Below, in pieces: positions 46,720 to 47,786 of a stretch of 64,000 bases of DNA. The translations under genes were made by a program, and so were the position numbers. The notes beneath the pieces were generated by a model that had not been told where the DNA came from, made no database searches, and saw only the letters and a list, made by a program, of their open reading frames with translations. The stretch is from the sequence record OQ721909. One strand, written 5' to 3'. Origin of the DNA: Escherichia phage vB_VIPECOOM01. Every line of letters starts with the position of its first letter. Position 1 is the stretch's first letter.

Positions 46720-47580
46720 TTACACCGCCATTTTTCCTTTCAAGACACCATGGGACTGATAATCTTTGAGAACGAAATCTCGCGCTGTCATATATTCAGT
46801 TAACCAATACATTTGAGTTTCAGTATCGCATTGACTGAATCCATTAGGCCAATTAATACTGAGTTTGCACAGGTCCATAGGGGTTCTATTTAATATCTCT
46901 TTGCATTGCTCAATATGGTTAGAATAAATGTGTGTATTGCCGCCCGAGAATATCAAATCGCCCGGAACTAGTTCACACATGTCAGCAACAATATGTAAGA
47001 GAGCAGCATAGCTCGCGATGTTAAATGGAAGACCGAGGAAAACATCTACCGAGCGTTGATACCATTGGAGGTCAAGGTATCCGTTACGAACATTAAACTG
47101 ATAGAACATGTGACAAGGTGGTAATGCCATTTGCTTAAGTTCAGCTGGATTCCACGCTGACACAATTTGACGCCTATCGTTTGGAAATGTTTTAATACGA
47201 TTAACAACTTCTACAATTTGGTCTACACCGCCAAAATCACGCCATTGTTTTCCGTAAATTGGACCAAGTTCACCACTATGATATCCTAAATCTTTTGCTT
47301 GATTTTCGTAATTTTCATCCCAAATCGTTTTTCCAGCAATTAAAGATCCATGAGTACGTTTACGTAGATCATTTACGTTAGTACTTCCTGACAGAAACCA
47401 TAGTAACTCAGAAATACATGCATTCCAAGCGAGCTTCTTAGTCGTTACTGCAGGAAAACCTTTAGTTAAATCCCAGCGTAATTTAGTACCGAACAAAGCA
47501 ATTGTTCCTGTGCCTGTTCGGTCATCGGTTTCGTAGCCATTTTCTAGAATATCTTTAATTAAAAATTGGTATTGTTGCAT
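46720..47580 (-). CDS. td: thymidylate synthase (uninterrupted)
   Basis: ORF-track start 47592 is TTG; ATG 47580 gives 286 aa '[10 protein letters not shown]...'; TS motifs 'LPPCH', 'DLQWYQRSVD'; no intron. Confidence 0.95.
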   Translation of the reverse strand: MQQYQFLIKDILENGYETDDRTGTGTIALFGTKLRWDLTKGFPAVTTKKLAWNACISELLWFLSGSTNVNDLRKRTHGSLIAGKTIWDENYENQAKDLGYHSGELGPIYGKQWRDFGGVDQIVEVVNRIKTFPNDRRQIVSAWNPAELKQMALPPCHMFYQFNVRNGYLDLQWYQRSVDVFLGLPFNIASYAALLHIVADMCELVPGDLIFSGGNTHIYSNHIEQCKEILNRTPMDLCKLSINWPNGFSQCDTETQMYWLTEYMTARDFVLKDYQSHGVLKGKMAV

Positions 47581-47786
47581 TAGTTCATCCAAGAATATGT
47601 AGAAGGATATTTGGCAAAGTTAGGCTTATATCCTAATTTAGTCATTTGTTTTGCTTTGCGAGTAAATCCTAAAGAACGCTCACCTTTAAGATATTGTTTT
47701 GGTGTCATAGGCCCTTGATGCATCTGCCGACAAATAAAAAGGGCCATAGCATTAGGAACATCCTTAACTTTTAATTTATTGCTCAT
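47580..47786 (-). CDS. small basic protein of unknown function inserted between frd and td
   Basis: 68 aa; ATG overlaps frd stop (ATGA), stop overlaps td ATG (TAATG). Confidence 0.45.

Follow-up and report, generated by a model that had tools for sequence, protein, structure and literature searches.

The window that we analysed, a stretch of 64,000 nucleotides of Escherichia phage vB_VIPECOOM01 (sequence record OQ721909), carries the genes for dihydrofolate reductase (frd) and thymidylate synthase (td) on the minus strand, and between these two lies a small ORF that encodes a strongly basic protein of 68 amino acids (Table 1). The position and the 68-residue translation of this ORF as given in a first-pass annotation of the DNA agree exactly with the sequence. 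The same holds for the two overlaps described there, in which the start codon of the ORF overlaps the TGA stop of frd (ATGA) and its TAA stop shares the last A with the ATG of td (TAATG). Overlaps of these two kinds are widespread in T4-like genomes, so that the coupling by itself is not remarkable. Considering that the GC content of the ORF (34.8%) is close to that of frd (37.5%) and td (38.8%), the ORF is not compositionally foreign. The chance that a frame of 68 codons stays open at around 35% GC is less than 1% by our own estimate. No paralog of the gene was found within the 64-kb window. On the other side of td, between td and nrdA, the window holds two further small genes of 87 aa (phrog_2458) and 108 aa (phrog_464), which overlap by 47 nt in different frames and are arranged likewise in vB_VIPECOOM03, T2 and AndreasVesalius.

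Table 1. Positions of the genes and junctions discussed in the text. Window positions are those of the 64,000-nt stretch; all others are locus coordinates.
Feature	Source	Position	Strand	Remark
68-aa basic ORF	window	47786 to 47580 (47580..47786)	minus	from ORF list and sequence
frd (dihydrofolate reductase)	window	48364 to 47783	minus	upstream neighbor of the ORF
td (thymidylate synthase)	window	47580 to 46720	minus	downstream neighbor of the ORF; intronless
ATGA	window	47786-47783	minus	frd/ORF junction
TAATG	window	47582-47578	minus	ORF/td junction
phrog_2458 and phrog_464 genes	window	46158-46701	minus	between td and nrdA
frd	RB55	1165-1746
td	RB55	from 1743		ATGA overlap with frd
68-aa ORF, uncalled	JS98 (EF469154.1)	2501-2707
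Sequence after frd stop	T2	1743-1775		two-codon mini-ORF
phrog_1928 gene	T2	1767-2114
phrog_1928 gene	AndreasVesalius	1766-2113
phrog_1928 gene	Marfa	2143-2496
phrog_1928 genes, tandem	CIP9	1826-2161 and 2145-2504
phrog_1928 gene	4S	2124-2504
Shortened copy of the 68-aa gene	IMGVR_UViG_2938479101_000007	893-994

A query of 601 nt across the ORF showed 100% identity to Escherichia phage vB_VIPECOOM03 (OQ721911.1, Tequatrovirus), in which the ORF is called as WFG78392.1, a 'hypothetical protein' of phrog_9550. When the 68-aa protein was compared with the phrog_9550 profile, residues 1-68 aligned with positions 1-68 of 68 (E = 5.2e-45); the ORF thus belongs to the same family over its full length, with no difference, and the family has no assigned function. 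The GenBank members of phrog_9550 include WFG78392.1 (vB_VIPECOOM03), which is identical to the gene of the window, YP_009850431.1 (Marfa gp177), YP_009855949.1 (CIP9 gp059) and AFU62604.1 (phAPEC8_0028), and the phAPEC8 homolog itself also matches the profile (3e-39). Given that the ORF has already been called in a deposited genome and catalogued as a PHROG, it is not new, and the initial suggestion that it might be novel has to be dropped: it is a known, annotated gene of an uncharacterised family, which apart from vB_VIPECOOM03 is annotated in more than 100 further T4-like records, but is lacking in T4 itself. We found no mention of phrog_9550 in the literature, and the frd-td junction is not discussed in the review of Petrov (2010). 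The record of JS98 (EF469154.1) has no call for the ORF, even though an intact copy with 97% identity is present. In PYPS2T and vB_EcoM_P8 it was labelled 'flagellar biosynthesis protein', but considering the lack of a Pfam or NCBIfam match this label is apparently an annotation artefact.

Homologs of the 68-aa protein were recovered from 236 phage records in a tblastn search. The amino acid identity to the ORF of the window was at least 95% in around 133 records, mostly of Tequatrovirus and of the Dhakaviruses JS98, IME281 and IME341, 78-81% in Klebsiella phages (Marfa and others), 68% in Enterobacter phage CIP9 (Kanagawavirus) and 60% in Serratia phage 4S, and it was around 43% over residues 3-68 in 72 records of Phapecoctavirus and allies. 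Full-length homologs occur in five Straboviridae groups (Tequatrovirus, Dhakavirus, Marfavirus, Kanagawavirus and Serratia phage 4S) and in Phapecoctavirus, and the full-length frame is kept down to around 40% identity in unrelated phages. The dN/dS ratio of the gene (Nei-Gojobori) was 0.05-0.28 overall, with values of 0.155 against Marfa, 0.187 against CIP9, 0.14-0.16 against two IMG/VR relatives and 0.05-0.10 inside the sub-branches, that of Phapecoctavirus included. Within the family alignments, M1, G40, M48 and G52 are invariant, while K6, P11, R20, K34, L51, Y53 and P55 are kept in at least 90% of the aligned sequences. The distant members have an N-terminal M-x-x-K-x-K-V-x-x-x-P, L-x-x-x-R, K-G…G-F and M-x-x-L-G-Y-x-P in common. 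Conservation is among the highest in the first 11 residues, which fixes the start codon.

The reading frame is also conserved among the carriers when the frd-td junction is compared across T4-like genomes, and the conserved frame, the purifying selection and the junction overlaps in five Straboviridae groups bear out the original view that this is a real gene. One could nevertheless suppose that the ORF arose by chance in a non-coding spacer, or that the spacer represents an RNA or regulatory element, given that we are dealing with a short, AT-rich frame (34.8% GC) that has no Shine-Dalgarno motif of its own and was passed over in the original JS98 annotation. This is extremely improbable, given the conservation of the amino acid sequence down to around 40% identity with synonymous sites saturated and a dN/dS of 0.05-0.28. 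An RNA element is equally at odds with the search results: the sole Rfam match of the spacer was beta_tmRNA with 13.9 bits, far under the threshold of 84 bits, the RNA folding energy was no better than that of shuffled sequences (z = +0.21), and there were no promoter or terminator matches. A chance origin of the ORF is effectively excluded by the comparative data and, judged by the same data, the ORF is a genuine protein-coding gene. A shortened copy was observed in one metagenomic contig (IMGVR_UViG_2938479101_000007), where a stop follows a change of frame after 33 codons, which looks like occasional decay of the gene. The protein P0018 (42 aa, from the annotation of IME339) may be a similar truncation or the result of a mis-called start.

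The ORF appears to lack expression signals of its own. Neither a sigma-70-like promoter nor a terminator-like site was found inside or beside it on its strand, and the nearest copy of the late-promoter motif TATAAATA is far away. Over the 25 nt before its ATG, the sequence is that of the frd 3' end, just as it is ahead of td in T4, and no Shine-Dalgarno motif is present within 5-10 nt upstream. The last codons of the ORF (TGG ATG AAC TAA) contain a GGAT Shine-Dalgarno-like motif around 8 nt before the ATG of td. Given the absence of a promoter, a terminator and a good ribosome-binding site, the gene would be transcribed together with frd and td as part of this early/middle nucleotide-metabolism unit, and since no Shine-Dalgarno motif lies at a useful distance, its translation probably starts by reinitiation after frd. 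Ribosomes that end at the frd stop would restart at the overlapping ATG of the ORF (termination-reinitiation), and the TAATG together with the GGAT in the last codons would hand them on to td. The cassette would thus fit a T4-type ATGA junction and keep the passage of ribosomes from frd to td, leaving the expression of td undisturbed. The overlaps have been kept across genera, which together with the lack of an own promoter and terminator supports the co-transcription of the gene within the frd-td unit and the translational coupling that had been proposed.

The arrangement in the window can be compared directly with that of T4. An ATGA overlap joins frd directly to td in RB55 (species Tequatrovirus T4), and two T4 records aligned without a break to a synthetic frd|td junction, which confirms what the first-pass annotation had stated about T4. 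The upstream context is the same in T4 and the window (…CAGTATA(C/T)AAATGA…), as is the overlap of the frd stop with the next start codon. The difference is that this ATG belongs to td in T4, whereas in the window it opens the 68-aa ORF, with td starting 204 bp further on after the TAATG overlap.

In Tequatrovirus, the interval between frd and td has three states: it is empty, with the ATGA overlap, in T4 and RB55 (and empty likewise in Dhakavirus QL01), occupied by the 68-aa gene alone, or occupied by a 115-aa gene of phrog_1928 alone with short spacers, as in T2, AndreasVesalius, RB6, RB68, wV7 and others. According to counts that were drawn from separate searches and are therefore approximate, the 68-aa gene alone is present in around 134 records and the phrog_1928 gene, at 90% identity or more, in 363 records, which makes the latter around three times commoner among Tequatroviruses (363 versus around 130 records). 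In addition, both families may occur in one phage: Marfa and 4S have one phrog_1928 gene (around 117-126 aa) between frd and the 68-aa gene, and CIP9 has two of them in tandem. The members of phrog_1928 (around 111-126 aa) resemble the 68-aa gene in that they occupy the same interval, carry an annotation without function, are optional and stand in tandem with it in Marfa, CIP9 and 4S. They differ in that their sequence is unrelated and in that the T2 gene has spacers of 20 nt and 45 nt and a Shine-Dalgarno motif of its own, without overlaps. In one record the phrog_1928 gene is called a 'putative homing endonuclease'; the family gave no Pfam or NCBIfam match, and no nuclease motif was found in the alignment. 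The ATG that overlaps the frd stop is still present in T2, where it opens a mini-ORF of two codons (ATG AAA TAA), and at its 3' side the T2 spacer ends with ACTAAATG, compared to ACTAATG in the window. Both could be left over from coupled junctions of a gene since lost, although the stretches of similarity are too short to judge.

In all Straboviridae carriers examined, the 68-aa gene is located directly upstream of td and overlaps with it, via TAATG in JS98, Marfa and Serratia 4S and via a GTGA overlap in CIP9. Outside the Straboviridae the family occurs in runs of small unannotated genes on the same strand, without td, and no recurrent neighbor was found in Phapecoctavirus or at the metagenomic loci; the IMG/VR scans contributed few extra loci.

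Since the two genes stand side by side in several outgroup genera, T4 more likely shows the result of a deletion than the ancestral state. An ancestral Straboviridae array frd - phrog_1928 - phrog_9550 - td followed by differential loss is likely on grounds of parsimony over a few outgroups, and the Tequatroviruses would then have kept one gene of the pair, the other, or, like T4, neither. The earlier wording that the gene was 'inserted' into the operon is therefore only partly appropriate, as the outgroups with both genes point to deletion in T4, while gain by recombination does occur, as between Tequatrovirus and Dhakavirus. Between the window and JS98 the DNA identity of the ORF is 97.5% (dS 0.05), compared to 76% for frd (dS 1.13) and 74% for td (dS saturated). 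The tract of high identity starts around 12 nt before the ATG of the ORF and decays around 60 nt into td, and the first 60 nt of td in the window are nearer to Dhakavirus (0.92) than to T2 (0.87). The near-identity with JS98 does not reflect constraint at the nucleotide level, as the dS of the ORF against Marfa is 0.9. These data clearly point to lateral exchange of the 68-aa gene between Tequatrovirus and Dhakavirus by recent recombination through the conserved flanks; since the tract runs into frd and td, homologous recombination in the flanking genes accounts for the exchange.

A comparison of two Dhakaviruses, JS98 (occupied) and QL01 (empty), revealed an exact difference of 204 bp bounded by AATGA: JS98 reads caaATGAgc … cTAATGAaa and QL01 reads caaATGAaacaata. 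With AATG(A) repeats at its two ends, the 204-bp unit could be deleted exactly, or be re-acquired by homologous recombination in the conserved flanks, but the two coupling signals by themselves already call for such AATGA repeats at the boundaries. With respect to the neighboring genes, frd of the window shows 93% DNA identity to T2, and td only 78% overall and 45-75% in the last ~300 nt, making the td of the window mosaic relative to its neighbors. Moreover, td is intronless in the window, whereas that of RB55/T4 has a group I intron with I-TevI.

The protein encoded in the window has a pI of 10.26 and a net charge of +11, and all 26 aligned members of the family are strongly basic (pI 9.8-11.2, net charge +7 to +16). 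From the family alignment, AlphaFold2 predicted a core of three helices (residues 13-24, 29-39 and 43-49) flanked by conserved, extended tails; the pLDDT was 75 with the first alignment and 82 (pTM 0.59) with a more diverse one. The homology and structure searches that had been proposed for the ORF recovered the phrog_9550 family and no fold relative outside it. In a Foldseek search against BFVD (viral models) only the family itself was retrieved, Pfam gave no credible match with the single sequence or with the 26 members at E <= 10, and NCBIfam gave none either. Likewise, no credible match was obtained in two sequence-profile searches against the PDB, nor any match to the PADLOC defence-system profiles at E <= 1. 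An exhaustive HMM search of 1.84 billion representatives yielded 13 genuine clusters; their proteins, 42-96 aa in length, all stand alone, and the shortest seem to be truncated. Two longer proteins with weak profile matches (P0046 and P0047, 198-283 aa) aligned through a reiterated 'LYIVRFLHQTTT' unit and were discarded as artefacts of translated repeats (e.g. CRISPR-like), not relatives. A helix-turn-helix, as the LGFTR…LGYKP motif might suggest, was not supported by the fold search and had no structural or profile match, and a Zn site, considered in view of the Cys residues of distant members, was rejected since the Cys positions are inconsistent across the sequences.

The 68-aa gene combines variable presence between core genes with horizontal exchange, and it is very probably a real accessory gene in a facultative cassette. 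That the gene is dispensable is firmly supported by its absence from T4 and from most Tequatroviruses. For variable 'accessory regions' of phage genomes, Silas et al. (bioRxiv 10.1101/2023.04.06.535777) describe such behavior, namely small, non-universal and horizontally exchanged genes between core genes, in genes that counter defence or modify the host. The 68-aa gene is similar in being small, non-universal, exchanged and wedged between core genes, and differs in that its placement in this class is by genomic behavior alone; the supplementary files of two coliphage accessory-gene screens (bioRxiv 10.1101/2023.04.06.535777 and its follow-up) do not contain the family. The conserved strong positive charge, together with the small helical core and the conserved tails, is suggestive of a polyanionic partner, which would most probably be a nucleic acid and otherwise an acidic protein surface. 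We put forward the binding of a polyanion or nucleic acid as a tentative assignment, somewhat short of probable. More doubtful, though possible, is a role early in infection, in which the protein would serve host takeover or counter-defence without being essential, the functional part of this proposal being derived from charge, size and genomic behavior.

The main rival to an accessory role is that the protein works together with the thymidylate/folate enzymes, as a basic adaptor or regulator of Td, Frd or the T4 dNTP-synthetase complex, or that its translation sets the level of td. In line with this, the gene is found directly upstream of and overlapping td in every Straboviridae carrier examined, whatever sits on the other side, be it frd (Tequatrovirus, Dhakavirus) or phrog_1928 (Marfa, CIP9, 4S), and the exchanged tract takes in the first ~60 nt of td. 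However, T4, RB55 and QL01 have frd and td without the gene, as do most Tequatroviruses (T2 type), in which an unrelated gene is present, and the members in Phapecoctavirus and in metagenomic loci are not located beside td or frd. Moreover, the C-terminal SW(M/F)(D/N) is kept at the protein level where no td follows, which implies that the ORF is not just a translational ramp. Taking these observations together, we regard a td-linked role as improbable.

The seg/mob endonucleases typically land in the intergenic slots that separate conserved T4 genes. The first-pass annotation had offered a remnant of a mobile-element insertion as an alternative to a novel gene; such a remnant could be, for instance, the DNA-binding tail of a free-standing homing endonuclease formerly inserted between frd and td. 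The movement of the ORF between genera and the label 'putative homing endonuclease' on the neighboring allele could be read in the same way, and with the seg/mob genes and I-TevI the 68-aa gene does share the presence/absence polymorphism between conserved genes and the lateral spread. Yet at 68 aa the protein is much too small, carries neither a nuclease domain nor a nuclease motif and is never fused to a nuclease: the 13 clusters contain only stand-alone proteins of 42-96 aa, none fused or aligned to a larger nuclease, and not a single GIY-YIG, HNH or other Pfam signal was detected in the 26 members at E <= 10. In addition, a remnant would decay, whereas purifying selection acts over the full length of the gene in two deep branches, the exchange is explained by flanking homologous recombination with a tract that reaches frd and td, and phrog_1928 itself lacks a nuclease motif or Pfam match. 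A mobile-element remnant is thus highly implausible and, on these comparisons, effectively excluded.

Overall, the data are best explained by a coupled, swappable accessory gene in a polymorphic slot with a basic, putatively polyanion-binding product, an explanation towards which we lean on balance. An extension of it, which we consider unlikely, is that the product would be a small basic effector with a new fold and that the slot states (empty, phrog_9550 or phrog_1928) would be arms-race alleles against different defences or host processes, or would serve to tune thymidylate/dNTP levels. The 204-bp unit would then be a self-contained cassette whose ends reproduce the ATGA and TAATG signals, such that it can be swapped between genera while the expression of td remains undisturbed.

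The state of the frd-td slot will be no surprise to a T4 specialist and does not address a long-standing question. Nevertheless, it makes clear that T4, the reference of the group, is the odd case at this locus, and that most of its relatives carry one of two optional genes. The slot thereby provides a clean natural example of a cassette that is coupled at both ends, has borders of 4-5 nt repeats and is exchanged between genera. The family that occupies it in the window is very small, strongly basic, restricted to phages and without detectable relatives in sequence or fold, so that its inclusion in accessory-gene or anti-defence screens would be reasonable and cost little.
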